DNA of 64,000 nt from NCBI GenBank assembly GCA_030641525.1, contig DAOWHH010000001.1, forward strand, positions 2,626 through 66,625, written 5' to 3'. This DNA comes from a bacterium. GTDB lineage: Bacteria > Patescibacteriota > Minisyncoccia > Phycocordibacterales > UBA12079. Positions 7,271-50,925 of the stretch are shown piece after piece; within the stretch, counting starts at the first letter, position 1; every line of letters begins with the position of its first letter. The notes beneath the pieces are model-generated. The model worked only from the letters and a program-made list of their open reading frames with translations. It had not been told where the DNA came from and made no database searches. The translations under genes were made by a program, and so were the position numbers.

Positions 7271-7372
7271 CCAAATTTAGCATACTTCTTCCTCAACCTC
7301 TGAAAAAATATTTTCAATGTATTGTAAACACACCTCAAATATTTTTTGACGAAGATGAAAAAGAAAACTTTT
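7271..7372 (+). repeat. copy 1 (degenerate) of an about 110-nt structured intergenic repeat
   Basis: CCAAATTTAGCATACTTCTTCCTCAACCTCTGAAAAAATATTTTCA aligns base for base with the 5' halves of the copies at 40790 and 50719. Confidence 0.7.
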
Positions 7373-10604: not shown

Positions 10605-10714
10605 TTTTCTGAAGGAAATTAAAACGAGTTAAAAGTTCGTAAAGTTGAAAGTTAAAAGTCAAAAATTTTCAAAGCAAATTTTTATACCTAATACTTAATA
10701 TATAATACTTATTC

Positions 10715-12093: not shown

Positions 12094-12124
12094 TAAAAAA
12101 AGGTCGCTTTGCGACCTTTTTTCT
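12094..12124. terminator. bidirectional intrinsic terminator (protease gene / recA)
   Basis: A-run, AGGTCGC-TTT-GCGACCT, T-run. It lies between convergent genes. Confidence 0.8.
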
Positions 12125-12156
12125 TTTACTTTCAACTTTATGAACTTTAAAAACTT

Positions 12157-13239
12157 TTAACTACCTTTCATCTCTTCTCTAATCTTTTTCAAAATTTCAT
12201 TTGATAATTTTTTATCTTCTTTAAGAAATTTTCGTGAGGCATCATAACCTCTACCTAATTTAGTATCATCGTAACTATAAGAAGATCCTGCTTTGGAAAT
12301 TATTCCATATATTTCTCCCAGGGCAATTAGCTCTCCTTCTTTTGATATTCCTTCGTTATAAATCAAATCAAATTCAGTCATCTTGAATGGGGGAGCAACT
12401 TTATTCTTCACTACCTTTACTCTTACTCGTCCCCCCACAACATCAGTTCCTTTTTTAATTTGAGCTATTCTTCTAATATCTAATCTGACAGAAGTGTAAA
12501 ATTTTAAAGCTCTTCCCCCAGGAGTAGTTTCAGGACTACCAAACATCACACCAATTTTCATTCTTATTTGATTGATAAAAATCACAACAGTATTACTCTT
12601 ACCAACAATAGCTGTTAATTTACGAAGGGCTTGAGACATTAATCTAGCTTGTCTCCCTACATGATGAGCTCCCATATCTCCTTCAATTTCAGCTTTAGGG
12701 GTAAGAGCGGCTACTGAATCAATTACTATGACATCTACTTTTCCAGACCTTACTAAAGATTCGGTTATTTCTAATGATTCTTCTCCCGTGTTTGGTTGAG
12801 AAACTAGTAAATCATTTATATTTACACCTAATTTTTTAGAATAATCTGGATCTAAGGCATGTTCAGCATCAACAAAGGCACAGATTCCATTTCCTTTTTG
12901 AGCTTGAGCAATTACATGTAATGCCAAAGTTGTTTTTCCTGAAGATTCAGGTCCGAATATCTCTATAATTCTACCTCTTGGAAGTCCTCCAATACCAAGA
13001 GCATCATCAAGTCCTATCGATCCTGTTGGTATTGCTTCTATCCCAACTTTAGGAGCATCTCCTAGACGAATAATTGAATCTTCTCCGAATTTAGTTCTTA
13101 TTTGGGATAATGTATTTGTTACATCATCCTCTCTTGTATCTTTTTTGGGTTTTTCAATTTTTTTAACCTCTATCTTTTTTTCACTAGTACCTATTGTTTT
13201 TTTAATAGGAGTTTTCTTATCTGCTTTTTTCTTTGGCAT
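12157..13239 (-). CDS. recA: recombinase RecA
   Basis: 360 aa. [16 protein letters not shown] Walker A and the canonical RecA core, with a K-rich N-terminal extension. Confidence 0.97.
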
Positions 13240-15931: not shown

Positions 15932-16127
15932 TATTTTCCTTTATTATATCACGGAGGGTTAAAAGTTCATAAAGTTGAAAGCTGATCTTTACGAAGTCTA
16001 TCTTAGGTATATGAAATAAAATTGCTTTGCAATTTTTCTGGACTTAATTCTTAAATCTTAAATCATTTTTTACAAACTTTTAATTTATGGACTTTTAATT
16101 GTCCTGTGTTCTTATACTGCAATGTAA

Positions 16128-21336: not shown

Positions 21337-21365
21337 ATACTTAGTAGTTGGATTACTAAGTATTT
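21337..21365. repeat. 29-nt hairpin repeat, identical to 44134-44162
   Basis: ATACTTAGTAGTTGGATTACTAAGTATTT. Internally it is the hairpin TACTTAGTA-GTTGGAT-TACTAAGTA. Confidence 0.85.
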
Positions 21366-26871: not shown

Positions 26872-27038
26872 ATTAGGGTTATATATTCCAAAAACTGGAG
26901 GGTTTTTTGGAAAGAGTTAATAAAATAACAATTAAATTGTCCCTAAAATCTCTTTACAAAAGATACACAAAAGAGTATATTTTCATCAAGAAATGAATGT
27001 TTTAAATTAAATAAACTTCCAATAATAAAGAGGTAAAA

Positions 27039-27311
27039 ATGAAAGATTCCGAATGTTCGCAGTTACTTAATTGTTTAAAAAAAGGGTGTAGCGGAGAAGT
27101 GAATCACTCTTCTCATAACCCAAAAAATTTGCGAGTACAAGTAAAAATGTATGTTAATGTATATCCTTGTTCAAAATGTGATGCTTCTTATCGTATTAAC
27201 GAAGGGGAATTGATTCTTGTTGATGAAAAAGGTTTTGATATCAAAAAAACTCAAACACCTAAGGGGGGACTCTGTCTTGATCCACATATTTTGCACGGTA
27301 CAAATCGTTAA
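27039..27311 (+). CDS. small Cys-rich hypothetical protein
   Basis: 90 aa with cysteines as CSQLLNCLKKGC ... CSKC ... C. Preceded by a strong SD (AAAGAGGT, 27027-27034) that is atypical for this window. The hairpin ATCATCGGA-TATTTAT-TCGGTGAT plus a T-run follows. Confidence 0.4.
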   Translation: MKDSECSQLLNCLKKGCSGEVNHSSHNPKNLRVQVKMYVNVYPCSKCDASYRINEGELILVDEKGFDIKKTQTPKGGLCLDPHILHGTNR

Positions 27312-27416
27312 GTCTCTCAAATCATCGGATATTTATTCGGTGATTTTTTATTTAAATTTCTTTCTTTACAAAATATTTGCAATTTTTATTTTTAATGTTA
27401 AAGTATAATAATCAAA

Positions 27417-27554
27417 GATCAGAGAAAATGGGTTTTAAGGGGAAACTTTTGAATAAATCCTATTTAGGTCGAAACACTAAATATATGCGTGTTTTTCTCT
27501 GAGTCTTGTTTACCATAAGGTAAATGGGATTTTTATTTATTTAAAGATATTATA
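27417..27554 (+). promoter_or_regulatory. putative structured leader of the rplJ-rplL operon
   Basis: GATCAGAGAAAA (27417-27428) pairs with TTTTCTCTGAGTC (27493-27505), enclosing about 65 nt. Its position matches the known L10-leader autoregulatory site. Homology was not tested. Confidence 0.3.
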
Positions 27555-28040
27555 ATGGCAATTATAAAAGAAAAGAAAAAAGGGCTTTTAGATAAAATCA
27601 AAGGAATTTTAGGAGATTCTAAAACAATTGTGTTTGTGAATTTCAAAGGACTGAATGTATTGGATACTACTCAATTACGAAATGATTTGAGAAATGAAGG
27701 TTCACTATATACAGTAACTAAAAAAACTTTACTTAAAAAAAGCCTAGAAGAATCTTCTGTTAAAGGAGAACTTCCTGAATTAGAAGGTGAGTTAGCTATA
27801 GCTTATAGTGAGGATGAAATTGCTCCTGCTAGAGGAGTTTATGAATTCCAGAAGAAACATAAAGATAATATATCAATTTTAGGAGGAATTTTTGAAGGGG
27901 AATATGTAGATAAAGAAAAAATGTTATCCATTGCACAAATTCCTTCACTAAAGGGATTACAAGGTCAATTTGTTAATGTAATAAATTCTCCTATCCAAGG
28001 ATTGGTTATTGCATTGAATGAAATTGCTGGAAGAGATTAA
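27555..28040 (+). CDS. rplJ: 50S ribosomal protein L10
   Basis: 161 aa. Lies just upstream of L7/L12. FVNFKGLNVLDTTQLRNDLR is typical of L10. Confidence 0.9.
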   Translation: MAIIKEKKKGLLDKIKGILGDSKTIVFVNFKGLNVLDTTQLRNDLRNEGSLYTVTKKTLLKKSLEESSVKGELPELEGELAIAYSEDEIAPARGVYEFQKKHKDNISILGGIFEGEYVDKEKMLSIAQIPSLKGLQGQFVNVINSPIQGLVIALNEIAGRD

Positions 28041-28155
28041 GTTATTTGGTAGTCGGATTATCAAGTAAAATTATTGGAATTAAAAATTAGAAAAAAGATT
28101 TAGGAAGTAAATTTTCTCTTAAATCTTAAATCTATTTAAGGTGGATTAAAATATT

Positions 28156-28701
28156 ATGGAAGAAAAAAAAGATGAAGTAGTTGAAGAAGCTACTGAAGTA
28201 AAGGAAGAAACAGTAGAAGCTCCTGTAGAAGAAGCTAAAACTGAAGATCCTAAACCTGAGGTCGGACAAGAAAAAAAGAAAGAAGTAGGAGAGGATACTA
28301 ACCCTGCAGACGGGCAAGATGTAGAAGTTCCTAAAAAATTTAAAACATTGGTAGAAGGAATTGAATCTATGTCTGTGCTTGATTTAAATGAATTAGTTAA
28401 ATTACTTGAAAAGAAATTTGGTGTATCAGCTGCAGCTGTTGCCGTAGCAGGTGGACCAATTGCTAGTGCTGATGACGGAGCAGAAGAAAAAAGTGCTTTT
28501 GATGTAGAACTTACATCTGTTGGAGATCAAAAAATAGCAGTTATTAAAGCTGTTAAAGGTGCTTTAGGATTAGGTCTGAAAGAGGCTAAAGATTTGGTTG
28601 ATGCAGCTCCTACGGTTTTGAAAAAGGATATGAAGAAAGAAGAAGCTGAATCTTTGAAGAAAGATATAGAAGAAGCTGGAGGAAAGGTTGAATTGAAATA
28701 A
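28156..28701 (+). CDS. rplL: 50S ribosomal protein L7/L12 with an about 58-aa acidic N-terminal extension
   Basis: 181 aa. The canonical part starts at [30 protein letters not shown] and ends [27 protein letters not shown]...AGGKVELK. Confidence 0.9.
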
Positions 28702-28702
28702 A

Positions 28703-28743
28703 TATTACCATAATCATTTTTACTAATCCTCACTCGAAATTAT
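28703..28743 (+). repeat. 3' half of the about 90-nt intergenic element (copy A); left arm of a 32-bp perfect inverted repeat
   Basis: AATCATTTTTACTAATCCTCACTCGAAATTAT (28712-28743) is the exact reverse complement of 30027-30058. Confidence 0.9.
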
Positions 28744-28747
28744 CATT

Positions 28748-28776
28748 AAAAAACAGCTATCGGATAGCTGTTTTTT
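28748..28776 (+). terminator. intrinsic terminator after rplL
   Basis: AAAAAACAGCTATC-G-GATAGCTGTTTTTT, embedded in a 47-bp palindrome (28739-28785). Confidence 0.8.
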
Positions 28777-28805
28777 AATGATAATTTTATTATTTATTAA
28801 TCCTC

Positions 28806-28833
28806 TTGACATATTATGTTATCTATATATAAT
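28806..28833 (+). promoter_or_regulatory. consensus sigma70 promoter
   Basis: TTGACA (28806-28811), 16-nt spacer, TATAAT (28828-28833). Confidence 0.6.
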
Positions 28834-28906
28834 TTAAATAATTATATAACGATAATCAAAATAATTTTTAGTTATCTAAATTCAAATAGTTCTTTGGGAG
28901 GAGAAT

Positions 28907-29296
28907 ATGAACAATAATAGGCAGATTACTAAAATACTGGGTATTTTAGTAATAGTGGTAATTGTAATGAGTGGTTGTTCAAGAGGTTTTCCATCTTTTT
29001 CAAAAGATGAAAAAATATGGTTAGGAGCTTGTATGTCCGGTCAAATAGTTGATTTATACACAACAGATCAAGGTCTTAAAAGAGGATTTGGAGAAGCTAA
29101 TCAAGTGACTTTTAGTGAAAAACCAAGCATAGAAGAATTATTTTTTAAAAAATTATTCATATATGCAGGGATGTACTTTGTATCTTGGTTGACAGAAGAT
29201 CCTGACGATGATGAAGATATTTCTATTGTGTGTGCAACATTAGGTTTTGGAGCTGCTGGATATAATCAGCATCTTATCGACACAAATTCACAATAA
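28907..29296 (+). CDS. lipoprotein, function unknown
   Basis: 129 aa. Signal peptide with lipobox VMSGC. Strong SD (GGGAGGAG, 28896-28903) that is atypical for this window. Confidence 0.55.
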   Translation: MNNNRQITKILGILVIVVIVMSGCSRGFPSFSKDEKIWLGACMSGQIVDLYTTDQGLKRGFGEANQVTFSEKPSIEELFFKKLFIYAGMYFVSWLTEDPDDDEDISIVCATLGFGAAGYNQHLIDTNSQ

Positions 29297-29412
29297 CCGT
29301 TCAATAACCCTCTTTTTTGAGGGTTATTTTTATAAAATACTTCTTAGTATTATCAACTATATGAAGTAAATTGTTATTGTAGATATTTTAAATTTTTGAT
29401 AATATTATTTAT

Positions 29413-30030
29413 ATGGAAACTCTAACTAAATTATTTGGGACCTCAGCTAAAGTAAAAATAATGAGATTATTTTTATCTAATGAAGATCAGGTTTTTAATA
29501 ATGCTGATATTTCAAAAAAAACAAAGGTTTCTTTAGCTAATGTTAGAAAGGAATTAAATATTTTGGAAAAAATTAATCTTGTTAAAAGAAAGGTTTTCTA
29601 CAAAGAAATAGAAAAGAAAAAAGCTGGAAAAATAATTATCGAAAAGAAGAAAAATAATGGTTGGGTATTAGATAAGAGTTTTTCTTTATTAAGTCCTCTT
29701 AAAAACTTACTTATTAAAAGTAGTCCTTTGGAGTCCAAGGAAATAATATCTCGACTCAAAAAAGGAGGAAATCTTAAATTGGTGATAATATCAGGAGTAT
29801 TTGTACAAGAAAAGGATAGTAGGGTAGATATTTTAATAGTAGGGGACAATTTGGATAATTCTTATTTAGACAGGGCTATTCATACTATTGAATCTGAAAT
29901 AGGACAGGAATTAATATATTCTGTTCTAGAAACAGCTGATTTTATATACAGATTAGGAGTTTACGATAAATTATTAAGAGATATTTTAGATTTTTCTCAT
30001 AAAAAACTAATTAATAAATTGAATTTATAA
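29413..30030 (+). CDS. winged-helix transcriptional regulator with an uncharacterised C-terminal domain
   Basis: 205 aa. The N-terminal KVKIMRLFLSNEDQVFNNADISKKTKVSLANVRKELNILEKINLVKRK is an ArsR/MarR-like wHTH pattern. Confidence 0.55.
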   Translation: METLTKLFGTSAKVKIMRLFLSNEDQVFNNADISKKTKVSLANVRKELNILEKINLVKRKVFYKEIEKKKAGKIIIEKKKNNGWVLDKSFSLLSPLKNLLIKSSPLESKEIISRLKKGGNLKLVIISGVFVQEKDSRVDILIVGDNLDNSYLDRAIHTIESEIGQELIYSVLETADFIYRLGVYDKLLRDILDFSHKKLINKLNL

Positions 30031-30116
30031 TTTCGAGTGAGGATTAGTAAAAATGATTACGCTAGTATTTATTTTTACTATATCCGAGCGATGGAATTAT
30101 ATGCTTGCTTCATATA
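30027..30116 (-). repeat. full copy B of the about 90-nt intergenic element (inverted orientation)
   Basis: The reverse complement reads TATATGAAGCAAGCATATAATTCCATCGCTCGGATATAGTAAAAAT...ATTTTTACTAATCCTCACTCGAAATTAT. It overlaps the stop codon of the upstream gene. Confidence 0.9.
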
Positions 30117-30337
30117 GTTTATTTGCCTTAAGTGGGGTTAAAATTAGGATAAGTGGTTTATCCACAATTATTGTATTATATATCTCTTATATAATGATAT
30201 TATATGAATATATAGTAATAAAGGTCGTCAAATCATAAAACCAATGTTGTTTTTGGTGGTTAAGTTAAACTATCCGATCAAGTTTTTGGTATATGATAAT
30301 AATTAAAAAATAATTATTAATTATAAATTTAGAAAAT

Positions 30338-31021
30338 ATGATATTACAAACTTGGGGTGAAGTGTTATCACAATCTTTTTTGAATCTTTGGATGGTGATT
30401 GTGAGTTTTGTTCCTAACCTAATTGTGGCAATAGTAATTTTTATTGCTGGTTGGGTAGCTGGAGTTTTGTTTGGAAGAGTAATTGAACGAATCATTCGTT
30501 CACTTGGTGTTGATAAGGTATTACGAAGTGCAGGTGTGGAAAAGACATTTAATAAAGCAGGCTTTCGTTTGGATACAGGAGCTTTCATTGGTGCTTTAAT
30601 TAAATGGTTTATCATAGTTGTTTTCTTAATAGCATCTTTTGATGTTTTGGGACTTGATCAAGTAAATCTATTCTTACAACAAGTTGTTCTGCTATACCTT
30701 CCAAGAGTAATAGTTTCGGCTATAATTCTTTTAGTTGCAGCAGTTATTGCTGAAGTAACAGAAAATCTTGTTAGAGGATCAGCCAAAGCAGCAGGTGTTA
30801 AACAAGCTCGTTTATTAGGAGTTATTTCTCATTGGGCAATCCTAATTTTTGCTGGTTTAATGGCTCTTTATCAAATAGGAGTAGCAGCAACATTTGTACA
30901 AACATTATTTACAGGATTTGTTGTAGCTTTATCTTTGGCGATTGGACTTTCGTTTGGTTTAGGTGGAAAGAATGCAGCAGCGGATGTTATAGATGAATTT
31001 AGAAAAAAAATAGGTAAATAA
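30338..31021 (+). CDS. membrane protein with conserved TM-helix repeats (CmpX/MscS-associated type)
   Basis: 227 aa. LPNLIVAIVIFIAGWVAGVLFGRVIERIIRSLGVDKVL occurs as a repeated TM-helix motif. Confidence 0.55.
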   Translation: MILQTWGEVLSQSFLNLWMVIVSFVPNLIVAIVIFIAGWVAGVLFGRVIERIIRSLGVDKVLRSAGVEKTFNKAGFRLDTGAFIGALIKWFIIVVFLIASFDVLGLDQVNLFLQQVVLLYLPRVIVSAIILLVAAVIAEVTENLVRGSAKAAGVKQARLLGVISHWAILIFAGLMALYQIGVAATFVQTLFTGFVVALSLAIGLSFGLGGKNAAADVIDEFRKKIGK

Positions 31022-31039
31022 TCTAGTAAATTAAGGATG

Positions 31040-31112
31040 AATCACCCAACATCACTTTTGAGGAATAGAAATTTCTATTTCCCAAAAGTGATGTTGGGTG
31101 ATTTTTGGTTTT
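31040..31112 (+). terminator. long-stem terminator
   Basis: AATCACCCAACATCACTTTTG (31040-31060) pairs with CAAAAGTGATGTTGGGTGATT (31083-31103), followed by TTTGGTTTTT. Confidence 0.7.
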
Positions 31113-31147
31113 TATGTATTAATATATTTTTTGAAATCATATAATCA

Positions 31148-31178
31148 TTGACTTAATATTTAATTTTGGTAGTATATA
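31148..31178 (+). promoter_or_regulatory. putative promoter of the S19-led ribosomal operon
   Basis: TTGACT (31148-31153) followed 18-19 nt later by GTATATA. Confidence 0.35.
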
Positions 31179-31221
31179 ACAAGCTCCGATAGCTAAAGGA
31201 GTATTTATTTTTTATATTATT

Positions 31222-31551
31222 ATGACAAGATCACTTAAAAAAGGTCCTTATGTGGACGAAAAACTTTTGAAAAAGATAGAAGGTAAAAAACCAAAAGATG
31301 CTGGTGTTGTTAAGACTTGGGCAAGAGCTAGTCAAATATCTCCAGAAATGGTTGGTTGGACCTTTGGTGTTCACAATGGTAAAAACTTTATTGATGTTTT
31401 TGTAACGGAAGATATGGTAGGGCATCGTTTAGGTGAATTTTCTTCTACAAAGAAATTTATTAAACATGGAGGTAGAATGCAAAAAGAATTGGATCAAAAG
31501 AAAAAAGAAGCTGAAATAACAGCAGCTAAAGCAGCTAAAGCAGCAGCATAA
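31222..31551 (+). CDS. rpsS: 30S ribosomal protein S19 (K/A-rich C-terminal extension)
   Basis: [19 protein letters not shown] and [13 protein letters not shown]. Confidence 0.93.
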
Positions 31552-31562
31552 TATTTTATTAT

Positions 31563-31997
31563 ATGGAAATAAAAGCAAGTATTAAAAATTATAGACAATC
31601 TCCAAGAAAGCTTCGTTTGATTGCTAATTTAATTCGTGGCAAAAAAGTTGATAGGGCGATTTCTGAACTTAATCATTTAAACAAAAAAGCATCAATTATT
31701 GTAAAAAAATTATTAGAATCAGCGTTAGCCAATGCTAAACATAATAATAATTTGAAAAAGGAAGATTTGTTTTTAAAAAAGATAGTGGTTGATAGCGGTC
31801 CATCTTTAAAAAGATTCAGGCCTGGAGCAAGAGGAGTGGCTTATCCTTATAAAAAAAGAACAAGTAATATTTCTGTTGTTTTAGGAGAAGATGTTAAAGA
31901 ACCTGAAAGAATTAAACCATCTGCCTCCACTAAAGGTTATGATGTGACAAAGAAAGATGAGAAAATTAAAACCATTAAAAAAGTAATTAAAAAATAA
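31563..31997 (+). CDS. rplV: 50S ribosomal protein L22
   Basis: YRQSPRKLRLIANLIRGKKVDRAISEL, in the conserved operon position. Confidence 0.9.
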   Translation: MEIKASIKNYRQSPRKLRLIANLIRGKKVDRAISELNHLNKKASIIVKKLLESALANAKHNNNLKKEDLFLKKIVVDSGPSLKRFRPGARGVAYPYKKRTSNISVVLGEDVKEPERIKPSASTKGYDVTKKDEKIKTIKKVIKK

Positions 31998-32000
31998 TTT

Positions 32001-32657
32001 ATGACACATACTGTTCACCCTTATGCACATAGAATAGGAATACTGAGAGATTGGAAATCTCGTTGGTTTGGTTCGCGTAAAAAATATTCTGAATATTTAA
32101 AAGCAGATGTTTTAATTAGAGAATATTTAGAAAAAAAGCTCAGAAAATTTTATATTTCTTCTATTGAAACAGAGAGAAGTGAAAAATTATTTAGAATTAT
32201 TATTAAAACTTCTAGAGCAGGTATGTTAATTGGAAGAAGTGGTGAAGGGGTACAGAAATTAAAGGACGATATAATAGCCTTTATGGATAAAAATAATTTA
32301 ACTAAGTCAAAAGAATTGAAAGTTGATATTGAAGAGATAAGATACCCAGAAACAGATGCCGCTGTGGTAGGAATGATGGTAGCAGAAGCTCTTGAAAAGA
32401 GAATGCCTTTTAGAAGAGTATTAAAAATGACTGTTGAAAAAGTAGCTGCTAACAGAGATGTAAAAGGTGTAAAGATTTCAATATCAGGTCGTTTAGGAGG
32501 AGCTGAAATGGCAAGAAGAGAAGAATTAAAGAAAGGAGGAATTCCACTTCAAACTTTTAGAGCTGATATTGATTTTGCAAAAGAAAAAGCATATATGTCT
32601 TATGGAGTTATAGGTATTAAAGTGTGGATTTATAAAGGAGAGATATTCAAGAAGTAA
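32001..32657 (+). CDS. rpsC: 30S ribosomal protein S3
   Basis: HTVHPYAHRIGILRDWKSRWF and a KH domain. Confidence 0.93.
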   Translation: MTHTVHPYAHRIGILRDWKSRWFGSRKKYSEYLKADVLIREYLEKKLRKFYISSIETERSEKLFRIIIKTSRAGMLIGRSGEGVQKLKDDIIAFMDKNNLTKSKELKVDIEEIRYPETDAAVVGMMVAEALEKRMPFRRVLKMTVEKVAANRDVKGVKISISGRLGGAEMARREELKKGGIPLQTFRADIDFAKEKAYMSYGVIGIKVWIYKGEIFKK

Positions 32658-32680
32658 AAAGTTTGTAAAGTGAAAAAATT

Positions 32681-33112
32681 ATGTTATTTCCCAAAAAAGC
32701 AAAACATAGAAAATGGCAAACAGGCCGAAAAAACCCAAAGAAAGTTGGGGTTGCTTCTCGTGGAAAAACAATAGCTTTTGGGTCTTTTGGTTTGAAATCA
32801 TTAACAGGAGCAAGAATTAAATCTAATCAAATTGAAGCTGCACGAAGAGCAGCTAAAAGGTATTTAGGAAAGGTAGGTACAGTTTATATCAGAATTTTTC
32901 CTGATAGACCTTTTACTTCTAAGCCAGCAGAGGTTAAAATGGGTAAAGGAAAAGGGGCACCGGAGGGGTATTGTGTACCTGTAAAACCTGGGTCAATGTT
33001 ATTTGAAGTGGATGGTGTGGATGAAAAAACAGCTAGAGAAGCTTTGAGAAAAGCTGGAACAAAATTACCTGTTAAGACAAAGATAGTTGATAGGGAAAAA
33101 ATAACTATTTAA
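32681..33112 (+). CDS. rplP: 50S ribosomal protein L16
   Basis: MLFPKKAKHRKWQTGR and the mid-protein AEVKMGKGKGAPEGY. Confidence 0.93.
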   Translation: MLFPKKAKHRKWQTGRKNPKKVGVASRGKTIAFGSFGLKSLTGARIKSNQIEAARRAAKRYLGKVGTVYIRIFPDRPFTSKPAEVKMGKGKGAPEGYCVPVKPGSMLFEVDGVDEKTAREALRKAGTKLPVKTKIVDREKITI

Positions 33113-33116
33113 TATT

Positions 33117-33317
33117 ATGGTGAAAAAAATTGATTTAAAAAAGAAAACAGAAAAAGATTTACATAAATCTTTATTAGAAAAAAGAGCTGAATTAAGAGAA
33201 TTTAGGTTTGCTTTATCTGGTAGTAAAATAAAGAATATTAAGAAAGCTAGAGCCTTAAGGAGAATGATTGCTCGTATATTAACAGAATTAAATTTTAGAG
33301 TAAGAAATACATCATAG
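33117..33317 (+). CDS. rpmC: 50S ribosomal protein L29
   Basis: 66 aa. ELREFRFALSGSKIKNIKKARALRRMIARILT. Confidence 0.88.
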   Translation: MVKKIDLKKKTEKDLHKSLLEKRAELREFRFALSGSKIKNIKKARALRRMIARILTELNFRVRNTS

Positions 33318-33410
33318 AATTATGTGAAGCAAGCATATAATTCCATCGCTCGGACATAGTAAAAATAAATATTTAAAAATAATCATTTTTACTAGTCCTC
33401 ACTCGAAATT
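33318..33410 (+). repeat. copy C of the about 90-nt intergenic element; fills the whole L29-S17 spacer
   Basis: ATGTGAAGCAAGCATATAATTCCATCGCTCGGACATAGTAAAAAT...ATTTTTACTAGTCCTCACTCGAAATT, ending at the rpsQ ATG. Confidence 0.9.
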
Positions 33411-33686
33411 ATGAAATTATTTAAAAACAAAAAAGAAAATCAGAAGATTGATGATAAAAAAGGAAAAACTCTAAAAGGAGAGGTTGTTTCTAATAAAATG
33501 GAAAAAACACTTGTAGTTTTGGTAAAAAGATTTGTTAAACATCCTAAATATGGTAAATATAGAACAATCACAAAAAGATATAAAGCTCATTATGATGAGG
33601 GAGAGTATGAGATTGGAGATAAAGTAGAGATAAAGGAATGTAATCCTATTTCAAAAGATAAAAAATTTAAGATAGTTAAGAGTTAA
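33411..33686 (+). CDS. rpsQ: 30S ribosomal protein S17
   Basis: LKGEVVSNKMEKTLVVLVKRFVKHPKYGKY. Confidence 0.9.
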   Translation: MKLFKNKKENQKIDDKKGKTLKGEVVSNKMEKTLVVLVKRFVKHPKYGKYRTITKRYKAHYDEGEYEIGDKVEIKECNPISKDKKFKIVKS

Positions 33687-33752
33687 AGGTTTTTAGTCTT
33701 TAGTAAAGAAAATTGCAAAGTGATTTTCTATCTATAAACTAATATTAATATT

Positions 33753-34124
33753 ATGATTCAACCACAAACAATAGTTAAAATAACGGACAATTCAGGAGCT
33801 AAGACTGGTAGAGTTTTTAAAGTTTTAGGTTCTTCCAAAAAGAGATATGCTCGAATAGGAGATTTGGTTGTTTTGTCTGTTCAAACAGCTGAACCTAGAA
33901 AACAGGTTAAGAAGAAGGATGTTTTAAGAGCTGTGGTGGTGAGAACTAAACAAAAACAAAGAAGAAAAGATGGATCATATATTAGTTTTGACGATAACGC
34001 AGTTGTTATAGTTGAAAAAGGAAAGAAAGAACCAATAGCAGGAAGAATTTTTGGACCTATTCCTAGAGAAATTGCTGATTTAGGTTATCAAAAAGTTATT
34101 TCTTTAGCTCCTGAGGTTATATAA
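33753..34124 (+). CDS. rplN: 50S ribosomal protein L14
   Basis: MIQPQTIVKITDNSGAK. Confidence 0.95.
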   Translation: MIQPQTIVKITDNSGAKTGRVFKVLGSSKKRYARIGDLVVLSVQTAEPRKQVKKKDVLRAVVVRTKQKQRRKDGSYISFDDNAVVIVEKGKKEPIAGRIFGPIPREIADLGYQKVISLAPEVI

Positions 34125-34131
34125 GAAAATC

Positions 34132-34419
34132 ATGAAAATCAAAAAAAACGACAATGTAAAAATAATTGCGGGGAAAGATAAAGGTAAAACTGGGAAAATT
34201 TTGCGTGCTTTTCCTAAATTAGATAAAGTTTTAGTTGAGGGTATTAATAAGAAGAAAAAGAACCAGAAATCTACACGAAAAGGTCAAAAAGGACAGATTA
34301 TTGAAAAAGAATTTCCAATTCATGTTTCTAATGTGGCTTTGGCAGGTTCTAAAACCAAAAAGATTACTAAGGTTGGAGAAAAGGTAGCGAAAGTCAAGGA
34401 AATTAAAACTACTAAATAA
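34132..34419 (+). CDS. rplX: 50S ribosomal protein L24
   Basis: MKIKKNDNVKIIAGKDKGKTGKI (KOW motif). Confidence 0.9.
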   Translation: MKIKKNDNVKIIAGKDKGKTGKILRAFPKLDKVLVEGINKKKKNQKSTRKGQKGQIIEKEFPIHVSNVALAGSKTKKITKVGEKVAKVKEIKTTK

Positions 34420-34424
34420 ATTAC

Positions 34425-34976
34425 ATGAATATTAAAGAGAAACAAAAGAATACATTTGATGTTTTAAAAACTGATTTTGGTTACAAAAACAAAATGCAAG
34501 CTCCTAAATTAGAAAAGGTTGTTTTGAGTGTGGGAGTTGGTTCTTCATCTGTTGATAAGAAAAGAATTGAATTAATAGAAGATAGATTAACGAAAATAGC
34601 AGGACAAAAACCAGCTCATAGAAAAGCGCGAAAATCTATTGCAGCTTTTAAATTAAGAGAGGGGGAAAAGGTAGGTTATCAAGTGACTTTAAGAGGTGAT
34701 AGGATGTTTGGTTTTTTGGATAAGTTTATAGATATAGCTTTACCTCGAACAAAAGATTTCAGAGGGTTAACTATTAAATCAATTGATGAAATGGGGAATG
34801 CTACTCTAGGAATTAAGGAGCATATTATTTTCCCAGAAACATCGGATGAGGAATTAAGAGATGTATTCGGTATGTCTATATCAATTGTGACATCAGCTAA
34901 TGATAAAAAAGAAGCAGAAGCTTTTTTACGACATCTGGGATTTCCTTTTAAAAAGGAAGAAGAAGCTAAAAAATAA
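34425..34976 (+). CDS. rplE: 50S ribosomal protein L5
   Basis: YKNKMQAPKLEKVVLSVGVG and RGDRMFGFLDKFI. Confidence 0.93.
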   Translation: MNIKEKQKNTFDVLKTDFGYKNKMQAPKLEKVVLSVGVGSSSVDKKRIELIEDRLTKIAGQKPAHRKARKSIAAFKLREGEKVGYQVTLRGDRMFGFLDKFIDIALPRTKDFRGLTIKSIDEMGNATLGIKEHIIFPETSDEELRDVFGMSISIVTSANDKKEAEAFLRHLGFPFKKEEEAKK

Positions 34977-35002
34977 ATTTTAAATAAAGTTAATATAAAT
35001 AG

Positions 35003-35030
35003 AAAACAGCTGTAAAATAGCTGTTTTTTT
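35003..35030 (+). terminator. terminator-like hairpin inside the spc operon (L5-S14 spacer)
   Basis: AAAACAGCT-GTAAAAT-AGCTGTTTTTTT. Same design as the rplL terminator. Confidence 0.55.
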
Positions 35031-35163
35031 ATTTGTATTCTGAGGTTTAATTTTGAAATAAAAAAAAACGAACAAAAATCAACATTTAATTGACTTTAAT
35101 AGGTGTTTTTGATAGGATTAACGAAGTTATCCGCTATAAGGCGGTATTAATTTATAGATAAAA

Positions 35164-35349
35164 ATGGCAAAAAAATCAGTTATAGCAAGAGCAAATAAAG
35201 AACCTAAATTTTCTTCAAGAATAGTGAGAAGATGTTTTAGATGTGGTAGAAAAAGGGGTTATATGCGTCAATTCGATTTATGTAGAATATGTTTTAGAGA
35301 ATTAGCAAATGAAGGAAAAATTCCGGGTATTAAAAAATCATCTTGGTAG
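35164..35349 (+). CDS. rpsZ: 30S ribosomal protein S14, zinc-binding type Z
   Basis: 61 aa. [23 protein letters not shown] contains two CxxC pairs. Confidence 0.92.
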
Positions 35350-35350
35350 A

Positions 35351-35455
35351 TAATTAGTTTATGGCTGATTAGCTGGCTAGCTTCTTAGGAGAAAAATCGC
35401 AGAGCGATTTTTCCTCTAATAAGCTAATTAGCTAGCAAGCTAAAAAGCTAAAATT
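35351..35455. repeat. about 105-nt imperfect palindrome in the S14-S8 spacer
   Basis: The arms are built from TTAGCT words (GATTAGCTGGCTAGCTTCTTAGGAG / CCTCTAATAAGCTAATTAGCTAGC) around the core hairpin GAAAAATCGC-AGA-GCGATTTTTC. Similar arms occur at 56481-56520. Confidence 0.7.
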
Positions 35456-35463
35456 AAATAATT

Positions 35464-35859
35464 ATGTCTAGAGATATAGTATCAGAATTAATAATTGGCA
35501 TTAAAAATGCAGGTATGGCAGGTAATGAAACTGTTCGTTTTCCTTATTCTGAATTAAAAGCTACTATTGCTGATATTTTAAAAAAAGAGGGATATATAGA
35601 TTCTTTTTCAAAAATTGGTAAAACTCCTAAAAGAAAATTGGAAATAGGAATAGCGTATAAAGATAAAAATACTCCTAAAATTAGAGATATTGTAAGAGTT
35701 TCAAAATTATCTAAAAGAATTTATTTTGGTAATAAAGATATCAAGAGAGTTAAGGGTGGTTATGGAAAATTAATCGTATCTACATCCAAAGGAGTTATGA
35801 CGGGAGATAAAGCTAGAAAGGAAGGAATTGGGGGTGAGCCGTTATTTAAAGTTTGGTAA
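35464..35859 (+). CDS. rpsH: 30S ribosomal protein S8
   Basis: DIVSELIIGIKNAGMAGNETVRFPYSELK and GGEPLFKVW. Confidence 0.93.
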   Translation: MSRDIVSELIIGIKNAGMAGNETVRFPYSELKATIADILKKEGYIDSFSKIGKTPKRKLEIGIAYKDKNTPKIRDIVRVSKLSKRIYFGNKDIKRVKGGYGKLIVSTSKGVMTGDKARKEGIGGEPLFKVW

Positions 35860-35948
35860 TATTATATGAAGTAAGCATATAATTACATCGTTCGGGTTAT
35901 ATAAAAATAATATTAAAATAATCTTTTTATAAATCCTCACTTGAAATT
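35860..35948 (+). repeat. copy D (diverged) of the about 90-nt intergenic element; fills the whole S8-L6 spacer
   Basis: TATATGAAGTAAGCATATAATTACATCGTTCGGGTTATATAAAAAT...CTTTTTATAAATCCTCACTTGAAATT, ending at the rplF ATG. Confidence 0.85.
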
Positions 35949-36482
35949 ATGAGTAGAATAGGACAACAACAATTGGAAATTCCAGCAAATACCGAAATTA
36001 ATTTGGTTGATAATTTTGTGGTAGTAAAAGGTCCCTTAGGGGAATTAAAAAGAGAATTAAGACCAGAAATAAAAGTTGAGATAAAAGATTCAATTGTTTC
36101 GGTTAACCCTACAAACAAATCTCCTTTTGCAAAAGCTCTTTGGGGAACTTTTGCATCACATATTTTAAATATGATAAAAGGAGTGAATACTCCTTACGAA
36201 AAGAAATTAATTCTTGAAGGTGTAGGATTTAAATCAGAGATTAAGGGTGATAAGTTGGTTTTAAGTTTAGGATTTTCTCATTTAGTTGAGATAAATATTC
36301 CTAAGGATCTGAAAGTGACAGCTGAAAAGAATAATATTTCAGTATCAGGAATTGATAAAGAATTAGTTGGTCAATTTGCTGCTAAAATAAGAGCCAAGAA
36401 AAAAGCTGAACCATATAAAGGTAAAGGTTTTAGGTATCATGATGAGGTAGTACGCAGAAAGCAAGGTAAGAAGAATGTTTAG
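35949..36482 (+). CDS. rplF: 50S ribosomal protein L6
   Basis: MSRIGQQQLEIPANTEINL and PYKGKGFRY. Confidence 0.93.
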   Translation: MSRIGQQQLEIPANTEINLVDNFVVVKGPLGELKRELRPEIKVEIKDSIVSVNPTNKSPFAKALWGTFASHILNMIKGVNTPYEKKLILEGVGFKSEIKGDKLVLSLGFSHLVEINIPKDLKVTAEKNNISVSGIDKELVGQFAAKIRAKKKAEPYKGKGFRYHDEVVRRKQGKKNV

Positions 36483-36512
36483 ATATAAAGTAGAGGCAAT
36501 AACAAAGTTTTT

Positions 36513-36866
36513 ATGAAAGATAAGAATAAAATCAAAAAGGAAAATAGAGAAAGAAGGCACAAGAGAGTTCGTGCTAAGGTTTTTGGTACATCTAAAAAAC
36601 CTCGTTTATGTGTTTTTAAATCAAACAAATATATTTATGCTCAAATTATTGATGATGAGAAAGGTAAGACATTAACATCTTCTTCAAGTTTAAAAATGAA
36701 AGAGAATGCATTACTTGAAAAGGCGGGTAAAATAGGTGAAGATATCGCCAAAAAAGCAGAAGATTTGAAGATCAAAGAAGTTGTATTTGATAGAGGTGGA
36801 TATATTTTTACCGGTAGAGTAAAAGCTTTAGTTGAAGGAGTTAAAAAAGGTGGTTTAAAATTTTAA
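36513..36866 (+). CDS. rplR: 50S ribosomal protein L18
   Basis: RRHKRVRAKVFGTSKKPRLCVFKSNKYIYAQIIDD. Confidence 0.92.
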   Translation: MKDKNKIKKENRERRHKRVRAKVFGTSKKPRLCVFKSNKYIYAQIIDDEKGKTLTSSSSLKMKENALLEKAGKIGEDIAKKAEDLKIKEVVFDRGGYIFTGRVKALVEGVKKGGLKF

Positions 36867-36875
36867 TATAATAAG

Positions 36876-37616
36876 ATGGTAGAAAAAGAAAATAAAAAAG
36901 AAGATATTAAATCTCAAAATGAGAATGAAAAAAATACACAGAAAGAAGCTGTGAAGGAATTTTCTGAAAGAGAAATTTCGGAGGTTGAGAATACTGAAGT
37001 ATCAAAAGTAGACGAGAAAAAGGGAAGTGAATCTACGATAGACGAGAAAGCTATAGCGAGTGAATCCTCATCTGTTAAGGCTACTGTGGTAAATAAAGTT
37101 ACGGTGGATGAAGGAAAAAAACCTTTTAAGAAAAATTTTAATCCTAGAAAAAGGAGTAGGTTTATTAAACCTAAATCAGAATTTGATCAAAAGATAATTA
37201 AAATAAGAAGAGTTACTCGTGTGATGTCAGGAGGAAGAAGATTTAGTTTTAGTGTGGCTATAGTATTAGGAAATAGAAAAGGAAAGATTGGTGTAGGTAT
37301 TGCTAAGGCTGGTGATACAGCATTAGCGATAGAAAAAGCTGTAAAAAATGCTAAAAAAAATATGGTTCAACTTAAATTAACTAATAATAACTCTATTTCT
37401 TATGAACTTTCAAAAAAATACTGTGCTTCTGTAATTAAGCTTATTCCTACGAAAGAAGGGAAAGGATTGAGCGCTGGTAGTGCTGTTAAAACTATTCTTG
37501 AATTAGCAGGTATTACTGATGTGTCTGGAAAGATTATGACTAGGAGTAAAAATAAATTAAATATTGCTAGAGCAACAGTTGGAGCTTTAGAAGATTTTAA
37601 AATCACTGGTAAATAA
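36876..37616 (+). CDS. rpsE: 30S ribosomal protein S5 with an about 90-100-aa N-terminal low-complexity extension
   Basis: The core KIIKIRRVTRVMSGGRRFSFSVAIVLGNRKGKIGVGIAKA starts near residue 105 of 246. Confidence 0.9.
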   Translation: MVEKENKKEDIKSQNENEKNTQKEAVKEFSEREISEVENTEVSKVDEKKGSESTIDEKAIASESSSVKATVVNKVTVDEGKKPFKKNFNPRKRSRFIKPKSEFDQKIIKIRRVTRVMSGGRRFSFSVAIVLGNRKGKIGVGIAKAGDTALAIEKAVKNAKKNMVQLKLTNNNSISYELSKKYCASVIKLIPTKEGKGLSAGSAVKTILELAGITDVSGKIMTRSKNKLNIARATVGALEDFKITGK

Positions 37617-37622
37617 AACATT

Positions 37623-38054
37623 ATGCAACTTCATCAATTAAAAAGAAAAAATTCAAATAAGAAGAGTGTTTCTGTTGGACGAGGTGGTAAGAGAGGTAAA
37701 ACTTCTGGTAGGGGGCATAAGGGTCAAAATGCTAGGGCAGGAACTAGCAAAAGACCTGAAATGAGGGAAATTATAAAAAAATTACCTAAGAAAAGAGGTT
37801 ATCGTTTTAAGTCTTTCCAAGAAAGACCAGAGATTGTTAATTTATCTTTGATTGAAAATAATTTTTCTAACGGGGAAGAAGTGTCTCCAAAGACTTTATT
37901 ACAAAAATCTTTAATTAGAAAGAAAAGGAATAAAATTCCTGCAATAAAAATTCTTGCAAAAGGGGATATAAGCAAGAAAGTAATAATTTCTGATTGTTTG
38001 TTTTCTCAAACTGTAAAAGATAAGGTAGAAAAAATTGGCGGTAAACTTCAATAA
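37623..38054 (+). CDS. rplO: 50S ribosomal protein L15
   Basis: MQLHQLKR...GRGGKRGKTSGRGHKGQNARAG. It starts 6 nt after the S5 stop, so there is no L30 gene. Confidence 0.92.
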   Translation: MQLHQLKRKNSNKKSVSVGRGGKRGKTSGRGHKGQNARAGTSKRPEMREIIKKLPKKRGYRFKSFQERPEIVNLSLIENNFSNGEEVSPKTLLQKSLIRKKRNKIPAIKILAKGDISKKVIISDCLFSQTVKDKVEKIGGKLQ

Positions 38055-38063
38055 ATTTTTGAT

Positions 38064-39332
38064 ATGAATTTTGCAAGAAAATTTAAATTAATTGTTCAAG
38101 ACAAGAAATTGAGAAATAAAATTCTTTTTGTTTTGTTTGCCTTGATAATTTTTAGAGTGTTTGCCTCTATCCCTATTCCTGGGGTTGATGTTGCTCGTTT
38201 AAATGAATTTTTCTCTAATAATCAATTTTTAGGACTTTTGAATATGTTCTCTGGAGGAGGTTTAGCTAATTTATCTATTGTGATGCTTGGTGTTTCTCCA
38301 TATATTACAGGATCGATTATTATGCAATTACTGACAATGATGATTCCTAAATTGAAGCAAATGTATCACGAGGAAGGGGAAGCGGGAAGGAAAAAATTTA
38401 GTCAATATTCTAGGCTTTTGACAGTTCCTTTGGCATTTGTCCAAGGTTTTGGTTTTTTGAAATTATTACAAAGTCAGGGTGTAGTGAATACATTGGGTGG
38501 TTTTGAATTATTGACCAATATAATCGTGATTGTAGCTGGTTCAATATTACTTATGTGGATTGGGGAATTGATTACAGAATACGGTATAGGAAATGGAGTT
38601 TCTCTTTTGATTTTTGCAGGTATTGTGGCTGGTTTACCAACCGCTATTAGTCAATTATATATTGCTTTTGAACCATCACAAATTCCGATGTATGTAGCTT
38701 TTGTTGGAGTAGCAGTTGCTATTATTTATGCAATAGTAGTTGTAACGGAAGCAGAAAGACCGATTCCTATTCATTACGCAAGACAGGTACGTGGATCTAA
38801 AGTTTATGGAGGAGTTTCTACTTACTTACCTCTAAGAGTAAATCAAGCAGGTGTTATCCCAATTATTTTTGCAATGTCTATCTTATTATTTCCACAAATG
38901 ATTTTAAATTTTTTGGTTAATGTTGACATTAATATGATTAGAACTGTATCTGATTTCATTCTTGGTATATTATCTAATAGTTGGTTTTATGCTGTATCTT
39001 ATTTTATTCTAGTCTTCTTTTTTACATACTTTTATACAGCTATTACTTTTGATCCAGATTCAATTTCAACTAACTTACAAAAGAGTGGAGCTTTTATTCC
39101 AGGAGTTCGTCCAGGTAAATCAACCTCTGAATATTTAGGAAAAGTATTGACTAGAATTACTTTAGTTGGAGCAACCTTTCTTGGAGTAATAGCGGTTTTA
39201 CCTTTGACTATGCAGGCCGTGACAGGTGTGACGGCTTTAGCCATAGGAGGAACAGCACTTTTGATTGTTGTTTCTGTGGTACTTGATTTAGTTAAAAAAG
39301 TCGATGCTCAAATTTCGATGAGAGAATATTAA
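38064..39332 (+). CDS. secY: preprotein translocase subunit SecY
   Basis: 422 aa, 10-TM pattern. GVSPYITGSIIMQLL and GIGNGVSLLIFAGI. Confidence 0.96.
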   Translation: MNFARKFKLIVQDKKLRNKILFVLFALIIFRVFASIPIPGVDVARLNEFFSNNQFLGLLNMFSGGGLANLSIVMLGVSPYITGSIIMQLLTMMIPKLKQMYHEEGEAGRKKFSQYSRLLTVPLAFVQGFGFLKLLQSQGVVNTLGGFELLTNIIVIVAGSILLMWIGELITEYGIGNGVSLLIFAGIVAGLPTAISQLYIAFEPSQIPMYVAFVGVAVAIIYAIVVVTEAERPIPIHYARQVRGSKVYGGVSTYLPLRVNQAGVIPIIFAMSILLFPQMILNFLVNVDINMIRTVSDFILGILSNSWFYAVSYFILVFFFTYFYTAITFDPDSISTNLQKSGAFIPGVRPGKSTSEYLGKVLTRITLVGATFLGVIAVLPLTMQAVTGVTALAIGGTALLIVVSVVLDLVKKVDAQISMREY

Positions 39333-39413
39333 GTCGAAAGTCTATAAAGTTCATAAAGTCGAAAGTCAAAGATTTGCTTCGCAAATTTTTCTTTGTTAAT
39401 TTATAATAATAGT

Positions 39414-40789: not shown

Positions 40790-40913
40790 AAATAAACCCA
40801 AACTTGGCACATTTCTTCGTCAGCTTCGGAAAAATTATTTTCACCTTACCATCAGTAAGGCTCAAAAAATTTTTCCCCGCTTTCTCGAACTGTACTCAAG
40901 TTTGGGTTTATTT
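40790..40913 (+). repeat. copy 2 of the about 110-nt structured intergenic repeat
   Basis: 17-bp perfect terminal inverted repeat AAATAAACCCAAACTTG / CAAGTTTGGGTTTATTT. Conserved core GGAAAAATTATTTTCACC, then hairpin CCTTAC-CATCA-GTAAGG, then CTCAAAAAATTTTTCC. Confidence 0.85.
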
Positions 40914-44063: not shown

Positions 44064-44070
44064 AACAAAA

Positions 44071-44160
44071 TACTTAGTAATCCAACTACTAAGTTTTTAA
44101 GGTATAAACAGTCAATATATTAAGTATACCACCATACTTAGTAGTTGGATTACTAAGTAT
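44071..44160. repeat. 24-bp perfect inverted repeat separated by about 40 nt
   Basis: TACTTAGTAATCCAACTACTAAGT (44071-44094) is complementary to ACTTAGTAGTTGGATTACTAAGTA (44136-44159). The right arm is identical to 21337-21365. Confidence 0.9.
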
Positions 44161-44171
44161 TTATAATATGT

Positions 44172-50705: not shown

Positions 50706-50718
50706 AGTTTTATAACTT

Positions 50719-50827
50719 CCAAAATCGGCATATTTCTTTATCAATTTCAGGAAAATTATTTTCACCGTATGCTCGATACGGCTCAAAAAATTTTCCTGAA
50801 ATTGATAAAGAAATATACTCAATTTTG
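50719..50827 (+). repeat. copy 3 of the about 110-nt structured intergenic repeat
   Basis: 27-bp perfect stem (50729-50756 with 50790-50816) around the conserved core GGAAAATTATTTTCACC, then hairpin CCGTAT-GCTCG-ATACGG, then CTCAAAAAATTTTCC. Confidence 0.9.
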
Positions 50828-50925
50828 AAAATTCTAAATGATTAGTCTTTAATTTTTGATAACTATCTAAAAAATATAGCAAATTTAGAGAAAATTAGAA
50901 AGGTTAAAATAAAATATCTAAATTT

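Follow-up and report, generated by a model that had tools for sequence, protein, structure and literature searches.

The 64,000-nt window described here (positions 2,626 to 66,625 of contig DAOWHH010000001.1, assembly GCA_030641525.1) comes from a bacterium of the Patescibacteriota and carries, directly after the ribosomal protein gene rplL, two inverted repeat arms that bracket a lipoprotein gene and a gene for a winged helix-turn-helix (wHTH) protein. The initial annotation had offered three readings of the bracketed DNA: a mobilised or captured two-gene cassette, an invertible segment, or an insertion hot spot. The arms are members of a family of short interspersed repeats, here called R1, and are very likely two independent R1 insertions, the DNA between them not being a unit. 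Their identity over 32 nt reflects the near-invariance of this part of R1, not a paired origin.

The 32-mer AATCATTTTTACTAATCCTCACTCGAAATTAT occurs at 28712-28743 on the + strand and at 30027-30058 on the − strand with 0 mismatches, and again at 33381-33412 (+) with one mismatch; none of 100 dinucleotide-preserving shuffles gave a 32-mer match, so that the exact 32-bp arms of the initial annotation are borne out. The weaker homology that it saw further outward is only partly a property of the repeat: the full inverted repeat extends over 48 nt at 94% identity (28696-28743 and 30027-30074), but the outermost AAATAA of the left arm (28696-28701) is the last codon and stop of rplL itself, and the same bases are found in relatives without the repeat. 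The arms were rightly assigned to the ~90-nt family of the ribosomal operon, which holds two full copies. Repeat search and alignment identified four R1 members in the window, and no additional, more diverged ones emerged there when a covariance model was applied with its filters off. The left arm comprises only the 3′ 42 nt of R1, between the rplL stop and the rplL terminator; its covariance-model match (41.6 bits) is genuine only at model positions ~55-95, and nhmmer matched model positions 39-96. The right arm is part of a complete inverted copy, whose terminal ...TTAT gives the TAA stop of the wHTH gene on the + strand. The left arm differs from the right-hand copy at 3 of 48 positions, and the arms differ from the copy between rpmC and rpsQ at one of 32 positions in the perfect stretch. 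Because the divergence between the arms is no lower than that between the arms and the rpmC-rpsQ copy, the arms have no special mutual relationship beyond membership of the R1 family.

The gene order around the arms points the same way. Five relatives (L019, L023/24, L025/28, L026/27 and L045 among the loci fetched for comparison) keep the order rplJ-rplL-(0-2 unrelated small genes)-wHTH-MscS-like-rpsS, and in none of them do repeats lie both before and after the wHTH gene. Because its homologues number more than 1100 across Patescibacteria and it occupies the same place in five relatives, the wHTH gene is a core ancestral neighbour of rplL and not cargo. Comparison of syntenic rplJL loci, which the initial annotation had proposed as a check on presence or absence of the cassette, thus finds the wHTH gene in all five relatives without bracketing repeats, and only the lipoprotein gene varies. 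The spacer between rplL and the wHTH gene contains no gene in L019 and L023, one gene of 95 aa in L026 and two (97 and 82 aa) in L025; these three small genes are mutually related and unrelated to the window lipoprotein. A spacer that holds zero, one or two small genes, with R1 sites that differ from genome to genome, gives partial support to the hot spot. The expectation that rpoB-rpoC follow rplL is true in general, but this lineage keeps rplL-wHTH-MscS-like-rpsS: rpoBC are not after rplL and S10-L3-L4-L23-L2 are not before S19 (window 27555-39332), an order kept in L023, L025 and L026.

The R1 unit of 87 nt consists of ATATGAAGCRAGCATATAATTnCnnCGYTCGG, a 14-bp hairpin with a variable loop (hairpin 2), TCCTCACTYGAAATT and a terminal AT. 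Compensatory double changes have occurred in eight of the 14 pairs of hairpin 2 (for example ATATAAAAAC/GTTTTTATA, ATGTAAAAAT/ATTTTTACA, ATGTAGAAAT/ATTTCTACA and ATAGTAAAAAT/ATTTTTACTA), and 99% of its alignment cells are paired, compared with 39-58% when the partners are slid. The nine G-T cells against two A-C cells mildly favour a structure of the sense strand. The loop varies from 2 to ~25 nt, which makes R1 units of 73 to ~100 nt; in L054 (12165-12360), units of a short-loop form repeat in tandem every 73 nt. The 3′ arm of hairpin 1 (CATATAAT) is near-invariant, and the 5′ arm and flank vary without compensation, which suggests that hairpin 1 is constrained in sequence and not in pairing. 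An RNAalifold model joins UAUAAUU in hairpin 1 to AAUUAUG at the start codon, in columns that are invariant and uninformative for covariation; such a pairing in R1 RNA is a speculative product of the model. R1 has no Rfam family: a scan of the window at gathering thresholds returned only one tRNA, and a relaxed scan of 27000-36500 gave no match on any R1 copy. Searches of the literature yielded no account of an R1-like element.

Three further candidate features of R1 were considered and rejected. The orf opposite R1 (30053-30238, 61 aa, preceded by GAGGA) has its ATG replaced by ACG or followed by a stop in other copies, and has no Pfam match. That the short 5′-terminal orf encodes a conserved peptide is contradicted by the nCnnC positions, which alter residues freely, and by copies that read ATG-TGA. 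Pairing of the linker (CGYTCGG) with the tail (CACTYGA) is contradicted by C/T changes that cannot pair and by the absence of co-variation.

The most distinctive property of R1 is its position relative to genes. Among 51 distinct 3′ junctions, ...GAAATTAT is followed by G 32 times, by A 15 times, and by T and C twice each; in the 32 ATTAT/G junctions (63%), the last AT of R1 and the next G form a start codon. An orf with a recognisable N-terminus begins at every one of these 32 ATG junctions, with a median length of 177 aa as against 10 aa for random ATGs. The genes abutted are functionally unrelated, encoding S17, L6, S19, the wHTH protein, triose-phosphate isomerase, GatC, RsmI, MurG and LigA by N-terminal reading, and additionally by Pfam and synteny in the case of the ribosomal and wHTH proteins. 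Start-codon ATs make up ~5% of the AT dinucleotides that are non-coding or in start codons according to a rough gene call, which gives the enrichment of start-codon abutment a binomial p of 4e-29. This enrichment is not a mere lack of alternative sites, because the copies that abut an ATG are preceded by spacers of 4 to 586 nt. R1 is co-oriented with the downstream gene in 44 of 50 cases (88%, p 2e-8). Other copies are located at gene 3′ ends, reversed, or decayed to fragments, and both arms of the window belong to this class. A −10-like hexamer ends 4-12 nt before the ATG of 16 of 47 window genes, and on sequence grounds many mRNAs of this genome may be leaderless or very short-leadered; R1 is not enriched at such genes, the hexamer being found 4-12 nt upstream at 7 of 25 insertion points versus 16 of 47 ordinary genes.

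Searched for with a degenerate pattern of 27 nt taken from its 3′ region, R1 was found at 22 loci in 10 other Patescibacteria/Paceibacterota metagenome-assembled genomes that are GTDB species representatives; a pattern from the 5′ part matched 35 metagenome loci, and viral contigs gave no R1 match. The 594-kb contig FLOH01000029.1 alone has at least five copies. Judged from aligned orthologous sites, R1 is mobile on an evolutionary time scale. At the start of the wHTH gene, L026 has an empty site, AAATTACT/ATGG, where L023 has the filled site AAATTGTT(87 nt)ATGG. The S8-L6 spacers of L023 and L026 are 10-12 nt long and end in AAAATTATG, and the window carries R1 instead; the L29-S17 spacer was likewise compared as a filled and an empty site. 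From these clean alignments, an insertion consists of 85 nt plus a duplicated AT or, equivalently, of 87 nt without duplication. The 5′ flank is biased towards (A)ATT: of 44 flanks, 36 have T at −1, 27 have T at −2 and 28 have A at −3. The R1 end on the 3′ side of the insertion is always GAAATTAT. The target resembles the 3′ end of R1 itself, which could explain tandem insertion. At least six loci have two or three units joined head to tail with a period of exactly 87 nt, and each of their internal junctions reads TTGAAA-16-TATAAT, an 11/12 match to a promoter.

The sites occupied differ between relatives. R1 is located between rplJ and rplL in L019 and abuts the wHTH ATG in L023; in L045 a truncated remnant stands at the wHTH ATG while the rpsS ATG is abutted by a full copy, and L025 and L026 have no R1 in the rplJ-rpsS region. 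Where orthologues have 47-54% protein identity (65-66% DNA identity in the first 300 nt), their R1 copies are 85-91% identical, which implies recurrent insertion at the same site, conversion among copies, or purifying selection. The one enlarged copy, in L037 (10727-11072), was considered as an autonomous element and rejected; it contains an unrelated MITE (a miniature transposable element with inverted repeats), ~190 nt long, nested in hairpin 2.

R1 would be classed as a non-autonomous element, moved in trans by a recombinase or transposase, with a preference for (A)ATT/AT/R targets, and it would be retained chiefly at sites where a start codon is rebuilt by its 3′ end and R1 becomes the 5′ leader of the gene. 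The left arm is a dead, 5′-truncated forward copy between the rplL stop and terminator; the right arm forms the 3′ third of a complete copy that lies in reverse orientation immediately behind the wHTH stop. It is possible, though less likely than not, that R1 is a mobile expression module that enters the AT of an ATG, regenerates the start codon and swaps the native upstream region for a standard leader comprising a −10 box, a covarying hairpin and an invariant tail without a Shine-Dalgarno (SD) sequence, units in tandem supplying a full promoter. Its parts are speculative: the invariant TATAAT of hairpin 1 might serve as a −10 box, with a full promoter only in tandem arrays, and hairpin 2 might have a role in the RNA of the sense strand, such as that of a 5′ stabiliser.

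The same observations bear on a different account, in which R1 is primarily a cis-regulatory module of the host (a promoter, a structured 5′ leader or both) that is held by purifying selection, spread by recombination or duplication, and not selfish. The abutment of 63% of copies to an ATG and the co-orientation of 88% with the downstream gene would be expected of such a module, as would the compensatory changes and G-U excess on the sense strand, the invariant TATAAT, the 11/12 promoters of the tandem junctions, the SD-less genome, and the 85-91% identity of copies, sometimes before the same gene, where orthologous proteins are ~50% identical. However, the downstream genes have no function in common, copies also occur at 3′ ends, reversed or decayed, no Rfam family corresponds to R1, and the exact 87-nt differences between filled and empty sites, together with the tandem arrays, resemble transposition. 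A primarily regulatory R1 is therefore rather unlikely, and it is compatible with a mobile origin and overlaps the interpretation of R1 as a mobile element.

Several points weigh against the interpretation of the arms as two insertions of a mobile R1. The left arm lacks its 5′ half, possibly through a deletion at the AAATAA microhomology. The sequence ATCAACTATATGAAGTAA at 29352-29369 is an inverted match, at 16 of 18 positions, to the 5′ end of the R1 copy and its flank (30105-30122), which hints at a local history more complex than two insertions; it could be what is left of another R1 copy, located upstream of the wHTH promoter. The AT on both sides of R1 fits three options alike (duplication of 2 bp, a crossover dinucleotide, or the absence of any duplication), and the terminal inverted repeats are so weak (AAGYGAGSAT, 8/10; AAGCGAGCAT versus AAGTGAGGAT, imperfect, subterminal and offset from the ends) that no class of transposition can be assigned. 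Single R1 copies have neither a −35 box nor a TG extension and were not called by a promoter scan. Among the 66 fetched loci, no autonomous partner or transposase was found for R1, and its mobility was judged from comparative presence and absence alone.

The match upstream of the wHTH gene can also be read as the trace of an insertion of the lipoprotein block (28744-29351) at the junction of two formerly direct R1 copies, the left arm being the 3′ end of the first and ATATGAAGTAA (29359-29369) a relic of the 5′ end of the second. The block is bounded on the left by ...GAAATTAT and on the right by AACT/ATATGAAG, which agrees with the beginning of the inverted copy at 12 of 12 positions, and so mimics a split junction; but the right-hand match is only 13-16 nt long, with an estimated chance probability of ~0.01-0.04, neither the covariance model nor nhmmer matched at 29359-29369, the ends of the block are unlike R1 ends, and a homologous block was not found elsewhere. 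A split tandem is improbable on this balance.

Inversion of 28744-30026 by exchange between the 32-48-nt arms, which would switch the expression of the lipoprotein and wHTH genes, is very unlikely. The length of the arms would allow RecA-dependent exchange now and then, the window includes recA (12157-13239, −), and there is a strong promoter within the segment. However, the 38 non-ribosomal window orfs of at least 110 aa encode no Pfam domain of a transposase, invertase, integrase, or serine or tyrosine recombinase, which upholds the initial observation that the window has no recombinase gene for orfs of this size, with RecA and FtsK present. Moreover, the present orientation is the conserved ancestral order, the arms are ordinary R1 copies of a kind that occurs at many unrelated sites, and a flip would not obviously connect the promoter to another gene. 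Three near-identical contigs, reached through members of the wHTH protein cluster, are independent assemblies collinear with the window at 99.9% (L064 with 29088-33349, L065 with 29184-31060, L066 with 28714-30052). L064 and L065 cross the whole right-hand R1 copy in the reference orientation; L066 reaches from one arm exactly to the other and one end of L064 falls within the rpmC-rpsQ copy, as is expected where assemblers break at a repeat.

Mobilisation or capture of the two genes as a unit between inverted R1 copies, in the manner of a composite transposon, is barely tenable. Two genes are indeed bracketed by perfect 32-nt inverted termini and the lipoprotein gene is missing in relatives, but the wHTH gene has the same position and orientation in the five relatives without bracketing repeats, and the left arm is a half-element without a 5′ end, so that the outward ends are unequal (a truncation point on one side and a full element on the other). 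The bracketed segment takes in the terminator of rplL itself, the pair of genes was not found elsewhere, and the window orfs of at least 110 aa include no transposase. The suggestion of a mobile or invertible two-gene cassette after rplL is thus removed as a false lead. That the 32-mer is a generic terminator module reused at gene ends, as its many unrelated sites and the terminator adjoining the left arm might suggest, has a negligible probability, as hairpin 2 is A+T-rich, is followed by TCCTCAC without a T run and was never called as a terminator, and most copies are immediately before start codons and not after stops.

The features of the locus and the complete R1 copies of the ribosomal operon are listed in the table. 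The terminator, the consensus promoter, the SD sequence and the wHTH stop codon within the right arm are all where the initial annotation had placed them. The rplL terminator was called three times in overlapping positions, all of them one hairpin, compared with 0.3 calls expected. The near absence of strong SD sequences elsewhere was also confirmed, 50 of 61 window genes having no SD-like motif.

Table. Coordinates of R1 copies and neighbouring features in the window.
Feature	Coordinates	Strand	Remarks
Left arm, 5′-truncated R1 copy	28702..28743	+	Loop remnant, 3′ arm of hairpin 2 and tail ...TCCTCACTCGAAATTAT
Right arm, part of complete inverted R1 copy directly after wHTH gene	30027..30115	−	Covariance model 103.8 bits, E 5e-19
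Complete R1 copy filling rpmC (L29)-rpsQ (S17) spacer exactly	33322..33412	+	Last AT plus G is the rpsQ start codon
Complete R1 copy filling rpsH (S8)-rplF (L6) spacer exactly	35864..35950	+	Last AT plus G is the rplF start codon
rplL intrinsic terminator hairpin	28739..28785	+	25-nt arms, 100%; base of stem overlaps last 5 nt of truncated R1
Sigma-70-type promoter TTGACA-16-TATAAT, for lipoprotein gene	28806..28833	+	Sole 12/12 promoter match in region
Shine-Dalgarno sequence GGGAGGAG	28895..28902	+	Before ATG at 28907; outlier in a near-SD-less genome
Lipoprotein gene, 129 aa	28907..29296	+	Signal peptide and lipobox ...VMSGC
Terminator-like hairpin AATAACCCTC-TTTTTT-GAGGGTTATT then T run, after lipoprotein gene	29303..29335	+	Sequence reading
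wHTH protein gene, 205 aa	29413..30030	+	Stop codon 30028-30030 inside right arm

The lipoprotein is a remote member of a family of lipoproteins of 108-137 aa with weak similarity to DUF5658, as found by exhaustive HMMER search; a word-indexed search found no close homologues, none of the fetched loci contains a DNA homologue, and the gene is not in L019, L023, L025 or L026. The lipoprotein block has no compositional anomaly, though its promoter and SD sequence are atypical for the genome. By its sequence features the orf is evidently a real gene, to be regarded as a lineage-specific acquisition in a variable slot.

Two other insertions were noted within the ribosomal gene cluster of relatives: a DNA methylase-HNH-HTH module between rplE and rpsN in L026 (13593-15478), and a gene for a 1012-aa protein with TSP1 repeats between the MscS-like gene and rpsS in L025 (10232-13270). 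In the window, a conserved non-coding region that is not in Rfam is located upstream of the MscS-like gene (30150-30337). It includes a perfect DnaA box, TTATCCACA (30158-30166), which is also present in L023, L025 and L026 and reads TTATCCCCA in L019; the box is followed by a palindrome, TATATAATGATATTATATA, and then by ~100 nt with a predicted conserved fold of 26 pairs, three of them compensatory. After the MscS-like gene is a near-perfect, loopless palindrome of 64 nt (31040-31103; 32-nt arms, 94%), for which Rfam gave only chance miRNA-like matches. Directly upstream of rplJ, 27401-27544 has a sub-threshold match to the Rfam L10 leader (25.9 bits versus a gathering threshold of 44, E 0.58) and is plausibly a divergent but genuine L10 leader.

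The window contains other repeats besides R1. A second family of ~76 nt has copies at 7271-7346, 40798-40873 and 50717-50829; the last is a palindrome with 54-nt arms, and the orthologous site in L006 holds R1 instead. An AAAGTT-rich 24-mer, GTTAAAAGTTCGTAAAGTTGAAAG, occurs at 10628-10651, 15958-15981, 32654-32677 and 39342-39365, and inverted at 12122-12177; it is located in intergenic spacers that include rpsC-rplP and secY-adk, and similar AAAGT repeats follow the wHTH gene in L025. A 29-nt palindromic repeat, ATACTTAGTAGTTGGATTACTAAGTAT, has three copies (21337-21365, 44070-44098 and 44134-44162), two of which, inverted relative to each other and separated by 41 nt, are upstream of murB.

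R1 can be compared with several known kinds of repeat. The Correia elements of Neisseria, the enterobacterial ERIC/IRU and the pneumococcal RUP/BOX are repeats of the MITE type, ~90-150 nt long, non-coding, intergenic and hairpin-forming, that become parts of transcripts; they are multi-copy, vary in presence between relatives, are conserved across species, and in some cases carry promoter elements. R1 is MITE-like in being short, non-coding and multi-copy, with presence and absence differing at orthologous sites. Unlike those families, it has no clear terminal inverted repeats, is strongly biased in orientation, ends at a start-codon AT in 63% of copies, forms exact head-to-tail arrays and is not known to have a cognate transposase. 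The MIRUs of mycobacteria are units of 40-100 bp, arranged in tandem within operons, in the same orientation as the flanking genes and in contact with the stop and start codons of their neighbours, and R1 resembles them in all of these traits of unit, array, orientation and codon contact. However, MIRUs carry small orfs that read through and overlap both neighbours, whereas the short orf of R1, which runs from ATGAAG... as far as a stop in hairpin 2, lacks sequence conservation and falls short of the downstream ATG; R1 also has a covarying hairpin, and its host phylum is different.

Palindrome-associated elements derived from IS200/IS605, and the REP/RAYT system, have no good terminal inverted repeats, have subterminal hairpins, and insert in an orientation-specific manner beside a short specific sequence; an end of IS200/IS605-type and REP elements resembles the target, which favours tandem insertion, and they are not known to make a 2-bp duplication. 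R1 is similar in its subterminal hairpins, its lack of clear terminal inverted repeats and its oriented insertion beside a fixed short sequence, but no Y1 (HUH) transposase was found in window orfs of at least 110 aa, the spacing from hairpin to end differs from that of IS608-type ends, and the terminal AT could be a 2-bp duplication. Integron attC sites are likewise imperfect palindromes at gene boundaries, marking variable genes in arrays. In contrast, the R1 consensus has no RYYYAAC...GTTRRRY core sites, R1 is 5′ of genes and abuts the ATG, the genes that it flanks are core housekeeping genes, and no integrase was found in window orfs of at least 110 aa. R1 is a variant of the known small interspersed repeats of bacteria, set apart by its precise docking at start codons in SD-less genomes.

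R1 breaks assemblies and can be mistaken for the ends of transposons. It is apparently undescribed, is conserved across species of Patescibacteria, and is placed with single-base precision at the start codons of unrelated core genes. If R1 acts as a leader or promoter, it would offer a handle on how transcription and translation start in these organisms, and would show how ribosomal-protein operons can tolerate or exploit a selfish repeat. As a mobile expression module, R1 would be a portable 5′ untranslated region and promoter that rewires gene expression in SD-less Patescibacteria, their ribosomal-protein operons included.

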